38,772 nucleotides of DNA from a virus. Each line of letters begins with the position of its first letter. The stretch's first letter is position 1. The stretch lies in the UHGV virus genome UHGV-0236456; one strand, written 5' to 3'. A model generated the notes under the pieces. That model was not told the origin of the DNA, did not search any database, and saw nothing but the letters and a program-made list of their open reading frames with translations. The position numbers and the translations under genes were made by a program. Below are positions 12,827-19,400 of the stretch, one piece after another.

Positions 12827-14196
12827 TAATAATCCTCTTGCCAGTCAGCACCAGCATAGTTATCAAACCGTGAGTATTGGCCGTTAAAAGCCAATCTCAC
12901 CGTGCCAATTGGGCCATTTCGTTGCTTTCCGATAATTACCTCGGCAATGCCCTTCATTTCGCTATCCGGGTGATAAACTTCGTCGCGATACAGAAACATG
13001 ATCAGGTCTGCGTCCTGCTCAATTGCTCCTGATTCACGTAAATCTGAATTTACCGGTCGTTTGTCCGCACGCTGTTCAAGCGATCGATTAAGTTGTGACA
13101 ATGCCACCACCGGTACTTGTAATTCCTTCGCCAACGCCTTCAGTGAGCGAGAAATCTCGGCAATTTCCAGCGTTCGGTTATCTTGCAGCTCGGGGACGCG
13201 CATAAGTTGCAGGTAGTCGATCATAATCATGCTCAAACCACCATTTTCTTTATAAACACGACGAGCGCGGGAACGAAGCTCTGTAGGTGTCAGGGCGCTT
13301 GAGTCATCAATAAAAATATTCTGCTTGTCCAACAGAATACCCATTGCGCCAGAAACCCGCGCCCAATCCTCGTCGTTAAGTTGCCCTGTCCGAATACGAG
13401 TCTGATCAACGCGTGCAAGAGAAGCCAGTGAGCGCATCATCAGCTGGTGGCTCGGCATCTCAAGGCTAAAAACCAATACGGGCTTATCGTTACGAACTGC
13501 GGCATTTTCGACGAGATTCATCGCAAACGTGGTCTTCCCCATAGATGGGCGGGCGGCGACAATGATGAGATCGGACGGCTGAAGCCCTGCCGTCTTCTTA
13601 TTGATATCGGTAAATCCCGTATCAAGCCCCGTTACACCATCATGTGGTCGCTGAAACAACTCTTCTATGCGAGATACCGTTGCATCGAGAATGCTGGCGA
13701 TATCTTTTGGACCACTACCGCTCTTTTGTCGTTTTTCAGCTATTTCAAAAACGCGGCGCTCGGCCATATCCAGCAATTCATTGCTGCCCCTGCCATCCTG
13801 CGCATATCCAGCTTCGGCTATTTCATTTGCGACGGAAATCATTTCACGAACAACCGCGCGTTCACGAACGATATCCGCATAAGCACAAATATTTGCCGCG
13901 CTGGGCGTGTTCTTTGACATCTCCGCAAGGTACGCAAAACCACCGGCGCGTTCTAATTTACCGTTCTGTTCAAGTGCTTCAGCAAGTGTTATCAAATCAA
14001 TCGGTTTGCCATGACTTAATAACCTCTCCATCTCACTGAAAATTTCACGATGAGCACTGGTATAAAAATCATCAGCAACTATACGATCTGCAACTTCATC
14101 CCAGCGGCAGTTATCAAGCATTAAGCCACCAAGTACAGCTTGTTCTGCACTAAGGGAATTTGGCATGGATTCAAGAGGGGATGCAGACATTAGCAC
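12826..14196 (-). CDS. ban: replicative DNA helicase, DnaB family (P1 Ban-like)
   Basis: 456 aa; Walker A GKTTFAMNL, DnaB N-terminal domain, conserved C-terminal RecA-like motifs; full-length colinearity with DnaB. Confidence 0.95.
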   Translation of the reverse strand: MLMSASPLESMPNSLSAEQAVLGGLMLDNCRWDEVADRIVADDFYTSAHREIFSEMERLLSHGKPIDLITLAEALEQNGKLERAGGFAYLAEMSKNTPSAANICAYADIVRERAVVREMISVANEIAEAGYAQDGRGSNELLDMAERRVFEIAEKRQKSGSGPKDIASILDATVSRIEELFQRPHDGVTGLDTGFTDINKKTAGLQPSDLIIVAARPSMGKTTFAMNLVENAAVRNDKPVLVFSLEMPSHQLMMRSLASLARVDQTRIRTGQLNDEDWARVSGAMGILLDKQNIFIDDSSALTPTELRSRARRVYKENGGLSMIMIDYLQLMRVPELQDNRTLEIAEISRSLKALAKELQVPVVALSQLNRSLEQRADKRPVNSDLRESGAIEQDADLIMFLYRDEVYHPDSEMKGIAEVIIGKQRNGPIGTVRLAFNGQYSRFDNYAGADWQEDY

Positions 14197-14476
14197 TCCA
14201 CCCAGGCGTGCTGAATGTCAGATATAATCGGCATACTCAAATCACTCCTAACGATATGAGTCATCACCAGAAAATCAGGATTAATGCGCCGGACTCTTCC
14301 CGGCTGTCACACCGAATCGCCAGGATGGTGAATCCCTTTACCCGAGAAACAACAAACGGTGGCTTGCACATTCCGGCTACCTGGTTCGTTGCCTGAGCTA
14401 GGGGCAAGGTTCCCCCCTTTTAACGTCACCAGACCGCTAACGACGCATGTGCCAGACGCCGTGTTACAACCAAATA

Positions 14477-14552
14477 TGGTGGCCCCTACCGGACTTGAAC
14501 CGGTGACCGTGCGATTATGAGTCGCCAGCTCTAACCACTGAGCTAAAGGGCC
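14477..14552 (-). tRNA. tRNA with CAU anticodon (tRNA-Ile2/lysidine-type or Met)
   Basis: 76-nt cloverleaf read manually: acceptor GGCCCTT/AGGGGCC, anticodon loop CUCAUAA, T-loop GGTTCAAGTCC, 3' CCA; closest to E. coli ileX-type. Confidence 0.85.
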
Positions 14553-14579
14553 GGATTACTGCCAATTTTGCTTACGCTT

Positions 14580-15407
14580 TTATTTCACCGGAACAAACGG
14601 AACAGCGGTATTACTGGTCATATACTGCGGTAATGTACCGTTCCATTTGTTGATCGCTTCCAACTCCATAACACCGGGGTTCTGGCGCAGAGCTTCACCA
14701 CGTAAACGAATGGCATCAGCTTCGGCCTGGGCTTTTGTGCGAATAGCATCAGCCTGTCCGGCAGCTTCCGCGCGCAGCATGTTGGCCTCTGCTTCACGTT
14801 GTTTGACCTCTTGCTCGCGTTGCAGGGTTTTTTGGTTTGCCGTGACTTTGGCGTTAATACTGTCAATAACTGTTGGCGGGTATTCTGGCTTACCTACATA
14901 AGAGAGGCTCATCACCTGAATGCCGATTGGCGTCATTTCTTCCTGAATGTCTTTAAGGGCTGCATCAAGCAATTCAGATTTGCCACCGTCGATAAATTTG
15001 TCGGTGGTCATTTTGCTGGCTAACCGGTTCAGAGCATCTGCAACCTTCTGGCGTAGATCGGTATCAGTAATATCATCTACACCTTTGCGATAGGTCTGAA
15101 ATACCGTTGTGACTTTTGCTGGATCAACCTTGTAGGCTACGCCGATGTGGTAACCAATGGTTGTTCCGTCGCTCATCTGGAAGCTGAACGGCTCATCGTA
15201 TGTCTTCATTTGCTTAAAGGTCGGGAAGATATAAACTTCAGTATTCAAGCCTGTCCAGTAGCGACCAACGCCAACTACTTCACCGATACCTTTATCATCC
15301 CCCAGCTTATTTACTTTGATCCCTACGTTACCTGGCTCTACCCGATCGCATCCGGTCAGACATAAAGAACCCAAAATAATCGCTGCACTAATCAACGTTT
15401 TTTTCAT
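14580..15407 (-). CDS. SPFH/band-7 (prohibitin-like) lipoprotein
   Basis: Lipoprotein signal MKKTLISAAIILGSLCLTGC (lipobox LTGC); SPFH core then Ala/Glu/Gln-rich coiled coil; 275 aa. Possibly P1 plp (unverified). Confidence 0.8.
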   Translation of the reverse strand: MKKTLISAAIILGSLCLTGCDRVEPGNVGIKVNKLGDDKGIGEVVGVGRYWTGLNTEVYIFPTFKQMKTYDEPFSFQMSDGTTIGYHIGVAYKVDPAKVTTVFQTYRKGVDDITDTDLRQKVADALNRLASKMTTDKFIDGGKSELLDAALKDIQEEMTPIGIQVMSLSYVGKPEYPPTVIDSINAKVTANQKTLQREQEVKQREAEANMLRAEAAGQADAIRTKAQAEADAIRLRGEALRQNPGVMELEAINKWNGTLPQYMTSNTAVPFVPVK

Positions 15408-15624
15408 TAATTAATTTCCTGGTTTTTTCACGAAAAAAGACTACTGCGAAAGCCGGGTAAATGAGCGCGAGAAGGACTCCCAACAATACAAGTATTGTGC
15501 TGTTAGATGAGATCATATTTGGCAAAAGCCAAACATACAGAACCAGTGACACAATCAAACAGAGGACGGCATAAATATATAACCGCACCCATAGCGTTCG
15601 ACATTTGTTCGAATTGTTCTGCAT
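15388..15624 (-). CDS. small integral membrane protein (two predicted TM helices)
   Basis: 78 aa with two hydrophobic stretches; overlaps the SPFH gene start by 20 nt (coupled). Possibly P1 upl (unverified). Confidence 0.5.
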   Translation of the reverse strand: MQNNSNKCRTLWVRLYIYAVLCLIVSLVLYVWLLPNMISSNSTILVLLGVLLALIYPAFAVVFFREKTRKLINEKNVD

Positions 15625-15799
15625 CCTCTCACTCCATTATTTAACGAATAAAAAAGCTGCGGTGCCGGGTGCCTCCCGGTGTCCTTTGGCTGGTTATCCA
15701 CCGTGGACGGGGAAACAAGGAGAAATGAATGGACTGATATAACCATTTCCCCGCGTGCGCTTAGCCGCATTCACCGCAACGGAAAGAGCATTCTTGGTG

Positions 15800-16552
15800 G
15801 ACCTGTAGATTGGGATATGAACCCGTTACAGGAGAATGCTCTTACCTGTTACGTGCTCCGTTTCGTGGAGCTAACGGCGGGTGATCGGGCCGCACCAGGC
15901 TGGACTTATTTCAGCGTTATGCTCATGCCAGAGAATCAAACTGTGATGGTCGGTGCTGAACTCCGACACAGGGTTGTAGCAAGCCCCGCAAAGCGCGCAC
16001 TACTGTAGTTGCGGCACATCAGCCTGTGCATTCACCACAATGTTGAGAACACTGGTTGTCACGCTGCAACGCAACATTTATTCGTAGATTGGGATATGAC
16101 CCCGTTACGCCAGTGTTCTCAACGTTGTAGTGCCGGTTACGGTTCCGGCCAGGCCTCTTCCTCAACGGGGTGTTCTCCATACGGACTACCGTTTATTGGT
16201 CGTTCCTGCGGTTTATGTTGTGAAGCCAGATGCTTATCTTCTGGTTGCTTCAAAGAGCTGCACTTCATCACAACGGTAAGAGCACTCGATGCATTTAAGC
16301 CAAGCCCCATAAGGGAGAATGCCCTTACCTGTTGTGTTGTGATGACCGGTGCTGATCTCCGGCTTGCGGTTATTTCAGACTCTCACGGGCGTTTAATTGC
16401 CCCGCCGAACAGCTCTTTTCCGCAATAGCTGCAATGTCTTTCGCGCATCAGCCTGCGCATTCATCACAACGGTAAGGGTACTTCGTAGGGATTCGAACCC
16501 TCTGCCAAGCTCGGCGATCTCCGACGTCGCAAAATACCCTTACCTGTTGTGC
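15800..16552. repeat. array of short repeated modules and nested inverted repeats containing degenerate tRNA T-arm-like fragments
   Basis: Repeats read directly: CATCAGCCTG(T/C)GCATTCA at 16018 and 16447; GTAGATTGGGATATGA(A/C)CCCGTTAC at 15805 and 16083; CACAACGGTAAG(A/G)G at 16269 and 16465 with inverted partners CCCTTACCTGTTGTG at 16322 and 16537; 18-bp inverted repeat 16038-16055/16110-16127. Confidence 0.5.
16481..16534 (-). pseudogene. tRNA-like fragment (T-arm GGGTTCGAATCCC) enclosed by a 16-17 bp inverted repeat; probably a tRNA remnant
   Basis: Minus-strand sequence contains a canonical T-loop but no D-arm or complete anticodon arm. Confidence 0.3.
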
Positions 16553-16628
16553 TGGTGCCGATTAACGGAATCGAACCGCTGACATCCTGCTTACAAGGCA
16601 GGCGCTCTACCAACTGAGCTAAACCGGC
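16553..16628 (-). tRNA. tRNA-Thr (UGU)
   Basis: 76-nt cloverleaf: acceptor GCCGGTT/AATCGGC, D-arm GCTC/GAGC, anticodon loop CUUGUAA, T-loop GGTTCGATTCC, CCA end. Confidence 0.85.
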
Positions 16629-16630
16629 AT

Positions 16631-16706
16631 TGGCGATGGTGGATGGATTTGAACCATCGACCCGTTGATTAACAGTCAACCGCTCTAACCGCTGAGCTAC
16701 ACCATC
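16631..16706 (-). tRNA. tRNA-Asn (GUU)
   Basis: 76-nt cloverleaf: acceptor GATGGTG/CACCATC, anticodon loop CUGUUAA, T-loop GGTTCAAATCC, CCA end; 2 nt from tRNA-Thr. Confidence 0.85.
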
Positions 16707-17374
16707 ACTTGCCGGGTACGTCTCCGGCGAGGGCTTCCACCTCCGTATGCTTTTCGGCGCACCGCGCCCTGGCTGCAATTCGGTAACAGGGGATGCATAA
16801 CCCTGGCTTCCAGCGTGATTAGCGCTTTCAGCATGACGGGATATACCCGTAAATTCGTGGAACTGTACCCAAAGTGCTGTTAAGCACCGCTGTTACGCTG
16901 AAAAGAAGACGCAACAGGAAAGGACGCTGACCAACAGATGGCCCCTTCTCGTTCATCTGGTTAATCACACCAGCGCCCTTACCTGTTGTGCCTCCCCGTT
17001 CCCTAATACACAGACGGGGACACTCTGCGGTCGATTTTTTGACGGGGGACGACTCATACCCCGTGGCGTCTGGCTTCTTAGGCCGCTACCATCATCAGAT
17101 CATCGTTTGCATTTACTTTAATGGTCAGTTTCTAAACCGCCGCAAAGTCGCTAACCATGACGAAAACCCTGAAAAAAACGCCCACCCGAAGATGGGCAAA
17201 CTGGAAGCTCGTAACGCACTTCGGTGTTGCCACTTAGGCGTATGGTCAACCTGGCAACTCGGCGTCATGAGGGGGAAGGAGTCACTACCCCGCCATACTT
17301 GCCGCCGCGCCTGTCGCGGCTAACAGCTAAATCGCTCTATAAATCACGATTCATTGAGGCGATATTACACTAAT

Positions 17375-17391
17375 AAATTTATTAGAGCAAT
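17375..17391 (-). promoter_or_regulatory. C1 operator, perfect 17/17 match (AAATTTATTAGAGCAAT = reverse complement of ATTGCTCTAATAAATTT), within a 16-bp palindrome CTAATAAATTTATTAG
   Basis: Read in sequence; overlaps the 3' end of the methyltransferase gene and heads the tRNA/helicase transcription unit. Confidence 0.6.
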
Positions 17392-19400
17392 ATTGCTATA
17401 ACGTCATGAGCAACACCTCGAGTGTCCCCCTTACAAGACACAGAACGTCTGGCAAAAAGAGGTTCCACTCTGAAGCCACTGTCCTGATAAAGTTCTCTGA
17501 TGTTTGGCGCGCCACTGTTAGTAATGAGAACCTTTGCACCTCGGCGATGAGCATCCGTCAACAGAGACGCCAGGCGTTTTTGCTCTTCAAACTTAAAGTC
17601 ATGACCGGAATAGTTCGTGAATCCCTCTGTATTTGGGAGCGGTTCATACGGCGGATCGCAAAAGATGACATCTCCTTCTCCGGCAGCTTCAATCACCGCA
17701 GCAAAATCACCACATACAAACTCAGAACGCCCTTCCGCACCAAGGAAGGCTTCCATCTCCTGCAATGGGAAATACGGAGTTTTATACTTCCCATAACCGA
17801 CATTGAACTCACCGGCTTGGTTGTAACGCGTCAATCCGTTAAAACAATGTCGGTTCAGGAACAAAAACGCCGCTGCGCGATGTAAATCATCATAGACTTG
17901 TTTGTTAAACGCATTCCGTACTGCCAGGTATCCTTCCTGCGTGTTGTAGTCCTGGAAGAAACGATGTGCCAGAGTGATAAGTGAATGCGCCTCGCGTTGC
18001 AGAGTCTTGTAAAAGTTAATCAGGTCAGCATTCACATCATTTAGCAGATTTTCCTGGTATCCGGCATTCATGAAGACAGCTCCGCCACCAACGAAAGGCT
18101 CAATCAGGCGCTTCCCTTCTGGCAAATAGCGAAAGATTTGTTCCAGAACACCAAATTTTCCACCAGCCCATTTGAATATGGACCGTTCGAATTCTGCCGC
18201 TGGTTTAACTTTTCGCTCTTTTGTTTCACTCCCTTCCTTCTGCCGACATGCAGCCTTGGCAATCCGATCGCCAATCCAGCGCATTACTGGTATCGCCATA
18301 CTATTGCCGATCGCTTTGTAACGCGGTCCGTCAGCTGCAAGCATCGCGGCCTCTTCTTCGCTCAAATCAGGATAGTTTTTGCGAAGGTATGCCAGTTCAT
18401 CTGAAGAAACTTTTTTACGCTTTTCCGTAGGGATCAATGTATGTCCATCAGGAAAACCTTGCAGCCTTTCACATTCGACAGGGATAAGACGGCGCATTCT
18501 ACCGTCGACGAGCAATACAATTGGTGCTTCATGGTTACATGTCAAAGTTGGTGCCGAATTATCGGTTTTTATCTCAGCCCCTCCTTGCCCATGTGCCATG
18601 GCAACTATGTTTGTATCATCGCAAGATCTGATAGCGATGTTTGAAGTATATCTGGTAGTTTCCTTCCCCTCGCCTCTGCTCGGCGCAATATTCCGGCGCA
18701 CGCCTTCGAACTCAAAAAGTACCGTTGCGGGATCGAGGTCTGTTCGAGCACTTGCGACAACAAACACGCGTCGGCGTCGTTGTGCCACTCCGAAGTATTG
18801 GGCATCAAGGATTCTCCAGGCCACCTTTCGCTGCGGTCCATAAATACAACCACACTGCGGCCACTTTGGAGCATGGCAACCGGTTTTGCCATCCCACCGC
18901 CAGAACGCGTTACTTTTTCCTGATTCAGGTCGATCACCTGGTTCAAATGGCGCATCTTCTCCAGCCAATCCGGCAAGGAAACATCCGAAGGCGTTATCTG
19001 CCGATGACAGGACTCCTGGGACATTTTCCCAGACGATAACTGTCGGTTTGAGGAAGGACTCAGACCGTTTGTCGTCAATTGCATTTGCAAGCTCCACATA
19101 CTTCAAAGTTAGCGCGCCGCGTTCATCATCAAGCCCACCACGTAAGCCCGCGATACTGAATGCCTGACAAGGCGTACCCCCGACGAGCACATCAGGGGAT
19201 TCGATTTCCCCAGCCAGGACTTTTTTGGCAAGTTTTGTCATGTCGCCAAGGTTGGCGACATGGGGCCAGCGGTGCGCAAGAACGGCAGATGGAAAAGGCT
19301 CGATTTCAGCAAACCACGCCGGACGCATACCCAACGGTTCCCAGGCAATACTCGCGGCTTCAATTCCACTGCAAACAGATCCATAGCACAGCTCTTTCAC
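17382..19400 (-). CDS. dmt: bifunctional DNA methyltransferase: N-terminal C5-cytosine MTase fused to C-terminal Dam-like N6-adenine MTase
   Basis: N-terminal [12 protein letters not shown] (PCQ) and VWENVPG (ENV) motifs; C-terminal [11 protein letters not shown]...DPPY motifs colinear with Dam; 672 aa. Confidence 0.9.

Follow-up and report, generated by a model that had tools for sequence, protein, structure and literature searches.

Introduction

HflK and HflC of E. coli form an FtsH-modulating heteromer of proteins of 334–419 amino acids (aa), in which the N-terminal transmembrane (TM) anchor of each subunit is followed by an extracytoplasmic (periplasmic) SPFH domain and then by a long wall helix. 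Prohibitin and erlin, which are TM-anchored proteins of eukaryotic organelles, have the same subunit plan, and their complexes likewise face the non-cytosolic side of the membrane. The NfeD-stomatin operons (QmcA-YbbJ, PH1510-PH1511) join an SPFH gene to an adjacent gene for a membrane partner that carries an NfeD OB-fold, with the proteins oriented towards the cytoplasm. In phages, SPFH genes have been noticed since 2006 (PMC1524935). The Kayvirus protein MbpS is a TM-anchored SPFH protein whose gene lies beside the lysis genes and is preceded by the abutting gene of MbpV, a small membrane protein with one TM helix and a long charged tail (PMC7150955). According to a paper from 2026, the reason for the presence of an SPFH gene in a phage genome 'remains unclear' (PMC13239085). 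Here we describe two overlapping minus-strand genes, one encoding an SPFH lipoprotein and the other a small membrane protein with two TM segments (the partner), at positions 14580–15624 of the virus genome UHGV-0236456. The whole stretch of 38,772 nucleotides that was analysed is referred to as the window.

The literature on phage SPFH proteins was found to consist of genome notes, the discussion of the Kayvirus pair and a paper on the Pasteurella protein PM0222; no functional study of the present family was found, nor had the partner family and its periplasmic motif been described, or the recurrence of the genes in presumed early operons, or their alternation with the tciABC genes of phage P1. 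The dedicated partner, the presumed early position and the exact alternation with tciABC make the question of phage SPFH proteins testable. We propose that the gene pair is an accessory two-gene membrane module that would be made early and would form a periplasmic SPFH ring or cage with the partner docked or enclosed, and would act on the infected cell's envelope. The evidence described below leaves us evenly divided on this proposal as a whole.

The SPFH lipoprotein is predicted to face the periplasm

The features of the larger gene are as follows.

14580–15407, minus strand: SPFH/Band-7 lipoprotein (PHROG 200), 275 aa, predicted to face the periplasm (Pfam, PHROG, AlphaFold2, Foldseek)
15348–15407, minus strand: lipoprotein signal peptide with lipobox LTGC (Cys20), Asp being the next residue (reading of the sequence)
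14682–14876, minus strand: single long Ala/Glu-rich helix, residues 178–242, 65 residues (DSSP on the AlphaFold2 model)

A first-pass annotation of the window, made from the letters alone, had placed an SPFH/band-7 lipoprotein with a C-terminal coiled coil at this locus, its start overlapped by a two-TM protein. Both open reading frames (ORFs) were indeed found at these positions on the minus strand, and the profile check with the Pfam family PF01145 (Band_7) gave a clear match of the larger product (E = 9.7e-31; 107.6 bits compared to a cut-off of 23.6), in which residues 22–208 correspond to profile positions 2–176 of 176. The same protein matched phrog_200, annotated as 'lipoprotein', over residues 1–274 (E = 2.3e-113). 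Its signal peptide, MKKTLISAAIILGSLCLTGC, comprises an MKK n-region, a hydrophobic core and the residues L-T-G-C at positions 17–20, followed by Asp21. It conforms to the lipobox pattern [LVI][ASTVI][GAS]C, and Cys20 is kept in at least 90% of the sequences in an alignment of 70 homologues. An AlphaFold2 model based on this alignment (mean pLDDT of 80) displays a beta/alpha SPFH domain and then one helix spanning residues 178–242, which aligns with the helices of HflK/C and prohibitin and corresponds to the coiled-coil wall helix of SPFH cages. The SPFH domain and the 65-residue helix are followed by a conserved C-terminal motif, EKWNGxLP. The mature lipoprotein has all the parts of an SPFH scaffold subunit. 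In several phage records the SPFH protein is named 'serine protease', which is probably a legacy of the older naming of HflK/C as protease subunits.

Foldseek searches with the model returned full-length cage subunits of prohibitin, HflK/C, erlin and stomatin with E-values from 2e-14 to 1e-10 over 260–300 aligned columns, and the assigned probability was 1.00 for subunits of prohibitin, HflK/C, erlin, stomatin and flotillin. Prohibitin and erlin were the top matches (E of about 1e-14 to 1e-12), although sequence identity is only 13–19% and neither has a small partner of the kind described here; QmcA of the QmcA-YbbJ operon was a weaker structural match (E = 3e-8). By sequence, the closest solved structure is that of HflK (E = 2e-4). 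In contrast, the protein failed both equivalog models, with 23.3 bits compared to a cut-off of 159.4 for HflK (TIGR01933) and 24.7 bits compared to 134.4 for HflC (TIGR01932). Judged by these scores, the protein is a member of the SPFH superfamily, a single subunit with a predicted lipid anchor, and is not an orthologue of HflK or HflC. It thus shares with HflK/HflC the order of periplasmic SPFH domain and wall helix, but differs in being shorter (275 aa), in being encoded by one lipobox-anchored gene instead of a heteromeric pair, and in having a dedicated two-TM partner of 62–84 aa that lacks an SPFH domain. MbpS of Kayvirus is a distant homologue (26% identity), and the two loci have in common that a small membrane gene directly precedes the SPFH gene; they differ in the anchor of the SPFH protein, in the architecture of the small protein and in the neighbouring genes.

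These relationships raise the possibility that the lipoprotein mimics HflK/C, that is, that a periplasmic SPFH assembly binds or encloses FtsH or displaces HflK/C and thereby alters the turnover of membrane proteins during infection. The sequence relationship to HflK, the presence of HflK/C-FtsH and prohibitin complexes among the top structural matches and the extracytoplasmic orientation shared with HflK/C would all fit such a role, as would the association of all three, HflK/C, prohibitin and erlin, with machines of membrane proteolysis or quality control. The equivalog scores, 23–25 bits against cut-offs of 134–159, speak against it, and so do the single SPFH gene in place of a K/C pair and the predicted lipid anchor in place of the N-terminal TM helix. 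Moreover, family members occur in haloarchaeal viruses, and archaea are not known to have FtsH. Finally, the conserved dedicated partner suggests that the module brings its own client. On balance, we consider mimicry of HflK/C rather unlikely.

The partner protein is conserved in its periplasmic turn

The smaller gene directly precedes the SPFH gene and overlaps with it.

15388–15624, minus strand: two-TM inner-membrane partner, 78 aa (PHROG 1130), predicted N-in/C-in (ORF, phrog_1130, hydrophobicity)
15478–15522, minus strand: periplasmic turn, partner residues 35–49, the sole conserved motif of the family (alignment of 26 representatives)
15388–15407, minus strand: overlap of 20 nucleotides (nt) between partner stop and SPFH start, holding an A7 run (sequence)

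The partner matched phrog_1130, annotated as 'membrane protein', over residues 12–76 (E = 6.3e-16). Its hydrophobic segments extend approximately from residue 17 to 33 and from 46 to 62. Since Lys and Arg residues are located at both ends of the protein while the turn between the segments is uncharged, the positive-inside rule predicts an N-in/C-in topology. To identify conserved positions, 26 partner types of less than 70% mutual identity were aligned. Only Pro35, Ser39, Val46 and Gly49 (numbering of the window protein) and their neighbours are conserved, forming the motif P-x-[LM]-[IVL]-S-[SAMT]-x6-V-x2-G, which starts where helix 1 ends and closes where helix 2 begins. If the partner touches the periplasmic SPFH protein, such constraint on the periplasmic side would be expected. 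The partner as a whole diverges rapidly: among the same phage pairs, partner identities are 23–46% compared to 46–93% for the SPFH proteins, indicating that the partner evolves far faster. A single-sequence search against 1.84 billion representatives accordingly returned only 10 matches at E≤1e-3, because proteins of this family are too short and evolve too fast for such a search, and partner homologues are better gathered by synteny. The GC content of the partner gene (0.39, compared to about 0.5 in the surrounding DNA) is not decisive in any direction.

The stop codon of the partner gene occupies positions 15388–15390 and the ATG of the SPFH gene positions 15405–15407, so that the genes share the sequence ATGAAAAAAACGTTGATTAG. 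Both have Shine-Dalgarno sequences: AGGA precedes the SPFH ATG by 9 nt, and GGAG/GAGAGG precedes the ATG of the partner. Overlaps of 1–20 nt recur in related loci. By this arrangement, the partner and the SPFH gene are probably translationally coupled. In one homologue, P0001 (347 aa, 8 member sequences), the two proteins are fused in frame through the loss of one A in the A7 run, which reflects a sequencing error or else a slippage variant that occurs naturally.

The first-pass annotation had likened the pair to NfeD/stomatin operons and had taken it to be probably equivalent to upl/plp of P1. The likeness holds insofar as a small membrane gene is coupled to an adjoining SPFH gene within one operon. 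Beyond that, the partner has no NfeD domain, no match to PF01957 being obtained at E≤1, and its 78 aa, all of which are needed for the two TM helices and the short tails, leave no room for an OB-fold. The SPFH protein itself is predicted to be lipid-anchored and periplasmic rather than cytoplasmic, and is closer to HflK/C, prohibitin and erlin than to stomatin or QmcA. The identification with upl/plp turned out to be mistaken: these are different ORFs on the plus strand (upl, 192 nt, 15817–16008; plp, 378 nt in P1, 16009–16428), and the pair at 14580–15624 on the minus strand has no counterpart in P1. That the locus is an NfeD/stomatin-type operon identical with upl/plp is therefore extremely improbable.

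The gene pair is widespread and occupies putative early positions

To determine how regularly the two genes occur together, we inspected 80 close loci, defined as viral contigs with an SPFH protein at least 78% identical to that of the window. A first script detected the partner ORF in 71 of these. Inspection by hand of one of the loci that it had skipped, L083, revealed the partner in the same frame, and L084–L089 share the SPFH N-terminus of L083. The two remaining close loci without partner are explained by a contig edge and an insertion of IS21. In the latter, an otherwise identical P1-like contig (L022, approximately 1843–2865), an IS21-family transposase of 340 aa lies directly upstream of the SPFH gene, and the partner ORF is removed. 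A second script was applied to 166 loci, of which 80 had been selected around a Pseudomonas homologue with 45% identity, and found a two-TM ORF of 50–95 aa ending at the SPFH start in 148. When SPFH proteins were clustered at 70% identity, 15 of the 19 clusters had a two-TM ORF at most 250 nt upstream, and 17 had an ORF with at least one TM segment. As the partner ORF persists in 148 of 166 loci despite partner identities as low as 23–46%, we concluded that the pairing is not due to chance.

The pair is found in different types of phages. In phage P88 (P2-like) and Erwinia phage S6 (N4-like), a small two-TM ORF and then an SPFH lipoprotein are annotated with an overlap of 4–16 nt, and the same pair is present in Pseudomonas phage 5400. 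Stx2 phages possess a partner ORF of 62 aa with an overlap of 4 nt (3316–3504 in L004) that is not annotated in the records. In matching PLSDB/RefSeq records, the SPFH gene is likewise the only feature listed under a query spanning both genes. By tblastn, the SPFH protein was detected in 795 phage records, including those of strictly virulent groups (Kayvirus and other Herelleviridae, N4-like, rV5-like, FelixO1-like, jumbo and crAss-like phages), and haloarchaeal viruses were also among the matches. In phages of Gram-positive bacteria, the SPFH anchor is a TM helix and the adjoining small gene encodes a one-TM protein, as in MbpV-MbpS. The cassette of the P1 type was identified in 352 PLSDB plasmids, and a relative with at least about 85% nucleotide identity is present in 460 of 5,426 complete E. 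coli genomes (8.5%). Taken together, homology and gene order define the pair as a real, widely conserved membrane module of P1-, P2-, lambda- and N4-like phages, both temperate and virulent.

In all Gram-negative contexts inspected, the genes annotated around the pair serve regulation, recombination or DNA metabolism. The pair is located between cox and replication gene A in P88, between cI and xis/int in lambdoid phages and downstream of cI in Pseudomonas phage 5400, and the SPFH locus lies among DNA-metabolism genes in the N4-like S6, the rV5-like 4MG and Hena1 and the FelixO1-like phiEa21-4. By homology to P2 and lambda, this gene order suggests that the positions are those of early operons. 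Such presumed early-operon positions in temperate as well as virulent phages suggest that the pair serves the infected cell and not the lysogen.

The gene contexts also bear on whether the module times lysis, with the partner being holin-like or membrane-permeabilising and the SPFH scaffold restraining or organising it. In its broad outline the partner resembles a class II holin, as it is small, has two TM segments in a predicted N-in/C-in topology and carries a charged C-terminal tail. In Kayvirus, mbpS and mbpV are located between lysK/holA and tgl, and MbpV was seen as holin-like by the authors (PMC7150955). However, no Pfam holin family matched the partner of the window at E≤1, the pair of the window does not lie in a lysis cassette, no annotated lysis gene adjoins the pair in any of the Gram-negative phage contexts examined, and conservation of the partner is confined to the periplasmic turn and does not extend to the TM helices that matter in holins. 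In addition, phages of the P1 type have their own lysis genes, lydA, lydB and lyz, elsewhere in the genome. A function in lysis timing is thus clearly unlikely.

The pair replaces tciABC within the C1-controlled ban operon

The genomic setting of the pair in the window is defined by the following features.

14562–15649, minus strand: exchangeable cassette of 1,088 bp, consisting of a 25-nt leader with ribosome-binding site, the partner gene, the SPFH gene and an 18-nt tail (blastn against P1)
14477–14552, minus strand: tRNA with anticodon CAT, trnI of P1, annotated as tRNA-Ile2 (ARAGORN; Rfam, 64.7 bits; P1 annotation)
12826–14196, minus strand: ban, DnaB-like helicase, downstream gene of the operon (ORF; DNA 98.8% identical to P1 ban)
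16553–16706, minus strand: tRNA-Thr (16553–16628) and tRNA-Asn (16631–16706) (ARAGORN, Rfam)
17364–17391: bivalent C1 repressor operator Op72ab, overlapping promoter Pban, at the end of dmt (motif match)

The region 14400–16750 is 99.7–99.8% identical to P1-like phage-plasmids of the RCS47 type, while classical P1, P7, D6 and SJ46 match it in the flanks only. On this sequence evidence, the window is an RCS47-type P1-like phage-plasmid. In annotated records, the order on the minus strand is dmt, Pban with the C1 operator, a dicF-like region, tRNA-Asn and tRNA-Thr, the upl/plp region on the opposite strand, a variable cassette, tRNA(CAT), ban and dbn. By blastn against P1, positions 12002–14561 and 15650–16286 are 98–99% identical, whereas 14562–15649 gave no match; P1 has 716 bp encoding tciC, tciB and tciA in its place. 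In both versions, the element-specific sequence begins 25 nt upstream of the start codon of the first gene, and the opposite junction is located just upstream of the 5' end of trnI. A leader of 25 nt brings a ribosome-binding site but leaves no room for a promoter of the cassette's own. From the alignment, the gene pair is a promoterless cassette that replaces tciABC (variable region 7) inside the C1-controlled ban operon.

The operator is intact in the window, with an exact 17-mer at 17375–17391 on the minus strand and a copy with 2 mismatches at 17364–17380 on the plus strand, and the P1 annotation puts Obanab/P1ban at the homologous place. The pair lies on the same strand as the tRNAs and the helicase gene and downstream of the same C1-controlled promoter region, which fits the earlier assignment to one transcription unit. 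The description of the pair as flanked by tRNA genes was accurate on the downstream side, where tRNA(CAT) follows the SPFH stop by 27 nt, but loose on the upstream side, where tRNA-Thr and tRNA-Asn are about 930 nt away, beyond the upl/plp region. In P1, the ban operon is repressed in the lysogen.

A survey of P1-like elements lists tciABC (region 7) as one of eight highly variable regions that is missing from about half of the elements, is silent on what replaces it, and reports a link of TerB-type homologues of tciABC to phage and colicin resistance (PMC9603915). The tciABC genes, like the SPFH pair, are a small gene set; the function of tciABC is suggested only by homology, and P1 can form plaques without its tci/upl/plp region (PMC10695390). 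The two sets differ in that they have no kinship in sequence or fold: TciA is by homology a protein of the TerB family, and TciB is recorded as TciB-like/DUF3927. We presume that TciA is cytoplasmic and that TciB is located in the membrane. The alternation of tciABC and the SPFH pair at one exact junction provides natural isogenic pairs for comparison.

The position of the cassette also bears on the possibility that the lipoprotein is a lysogenic-conversion factor, which would be made in the lysogen, reach the outer membrane or vesicles, and alter host interaction, serum or biofilm traits. A precedent might be PM0222 of Pasteurella multocida, a possible homologue from a prophage. This 'HflK/C-like' protein of 25–35 kDa was found in outer-membrane vesicles of a lysogen, signals via TLR1/2, which recognises triacylated lipoproteins, and has a part in virulence (PMC9872710). 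The gene is also common in E. coli, as shown by the 460 genomes described above. In contrast, the cassette is too tight to hold a promoter and is located downstream of a C1-controlled one, Asp at +2 favours retention in the inner membrane in the enterobacterial members, and many members of the family belong to strictly virulent phages (Kayvirus, N4-like, rV5-like and FelixO1-like), where lysogenic conversion is impossible. We consider such a role very unlikely. The first-pass annotation had framed the pair as serving a prophage, for instance in superinfection exclusion or in modulating host membrane proteases; the prophage part of this framing is weakened by the 25-nt leader, by the repression of this operon in the P1 lysogen, and by the occurrence of such pairs in strictly virulent phages.

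A possible role at the envelope of the infected cell

According to the proposed module function, both proteins would be made together once C1 repression is lifted, i.e., during early lytic growth, as suggested by the gene position. The lipoprotein would be exported, acylated and kept in the inner membrane by Asp at +2, which is the established signal for inner-membrane retention by Lol avoidance in E. coli. Its long helix may then support assembly of a ring or cage on the periplasmic face, by analogy with HflK/C, prohibitin and erlin; to our knowledge, every structurally characterised full-length SPFH protein forms a ring or cage. The conserved periplasmic turn of the partner could serve as the docking site, or the partner could be the enclosed client. 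In the most speculative step, the assembly would alter or guard the envelope of the infected cell, blocking a second phage or a colicin-like agent or keeping the membrane intact until lysis.

An envelope-guarding role is favoured because temperate and virulent phages alike have the pair in presumed early operons and because it is swapped with a TerB-type cassette. Such a role would be of the same general sort as that which homology suggests for tciABC. Small, early-expressed membrane, periplasmic or lipoprotein products made by phages, such as T4 Imm and Sp, P1 Sim and T5 Llp, protect the envelope of the infected or lysogenic cell; the analogy to the putative SPFH exclusion pair is functional only, and the proteins are not homologous to it. 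The role itself, be it exclusion, envelope protection or modulation of FtsH, is the weakest step of the proposal. A wider generalisation would be that phages possess a so far undescribed general device, shared by hundreds of temperate and virulent phages: a cage built early in infection on the outside of the cytoplasmic membrane. It would exclude incoming DNA or toxins, which would be a new mechanism of immunity to superinfection or colicins, or capture a host machine of the inner membrane, for instance FtsH, with tciABC as its functional alternative at the P1 hot spot. We regard this generalisation as improbable. If the pair is indeed an exclusion or FtsH-directed device, it matters for the ecology of phage-plasmids and for the choice of therapeutic phages; if it is neither, it is a routine accessory gene.

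Several observations weigh against the proposed module. Searches of PADLOC-DB v2 gave no match for the SPFH protein at E≤1, and for the partner only PDC-M18B at E = 0.022. The lineages of phiEa21-4 and L131 have no TM partner adjoining the SPFH gene, and in rV5-like phages another small gene intervenes between the two. Retention in the inner membrane may not hold throughout the family, since the residue at +2 is Ser, Asn, Gly, Glu or Tyr in other members; even here, judging from the sequence, Arg at +3 might weaken it. PM0222, a possible member of the subfamily, was found in vesicles, as described above. A scan for sigma-70 promoters between 14100 and 17500 yielded nothing and missed the annotated Pban as well, and is therefore uninformative with regard to an internal promoter. 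Finally, because the corresponding P1 region is dispensable (PMC10695390), any role of the module has to be accessory.

Structured elements upstream of the cassette

Within 14200–17500, the three tRNAs are the only Rfam matches above threshold. Between Pban and the tRNAs, a DicF-like region (17179–17266, minus strand), which is annotated as such in P1, contains a clear intrinsic terminator (17198–17179). Transcripts from Pban must get past this terminator before they reach the cassette. A sub-threshold match to the Salmonella sRNA family STnc100 (37.8 bits compared to a gathering score of 47; E = 6e-6) is located at 15658–15778 on the minus strand, directly upstream of the cassette junction, and ends in a stem followed by UUUUUUAUU. 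By its sequence, it could be a terminator-like or sRNA element that is common to the window and P1.

Between Pban and the cassette, the minus strand also carries four paralogous long-stem hairpins of 75–105 nt (16890–16995, 16455–16552, 16258–16345 and 15765–15858). Each is closed by ACAACAGGTAAGGGC...GCCCTTACCGTTGT, and the z-scores of RNA folding range from -4.5 to -5.7. The hairpins have a common consensus stem of 18 pairs with compensatory changes in 5 of them, and G-U pairs favour the minus strand, which is that of the ban operon. The hairpin at 16455–16552 carries the T-arm-like sequence GGGTTCGAATCCC, and the annotation of related phages places a tRNA-Tyr or tRNA-Ser gene at some point within the corresponding tRNA region. 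The hairpins may be remnants of tRNA genes, or else elements at which the ban-operon RNA is processed.

The upl and plp ORFs, the latter annotated as 'putative lipoprotein' in P1 and RCS47, are antisense over three of the four hairpins. The plp-like ORF of the window has a TTG start and no convincing lipobox. Because they run antisense over structured hairpins, we doubt that upl and plp are real genes, and both may be spurious ORFs over structured RNA. Compared to P1, the window contains one extra repeat unit of 173 bp at 16287–16459.

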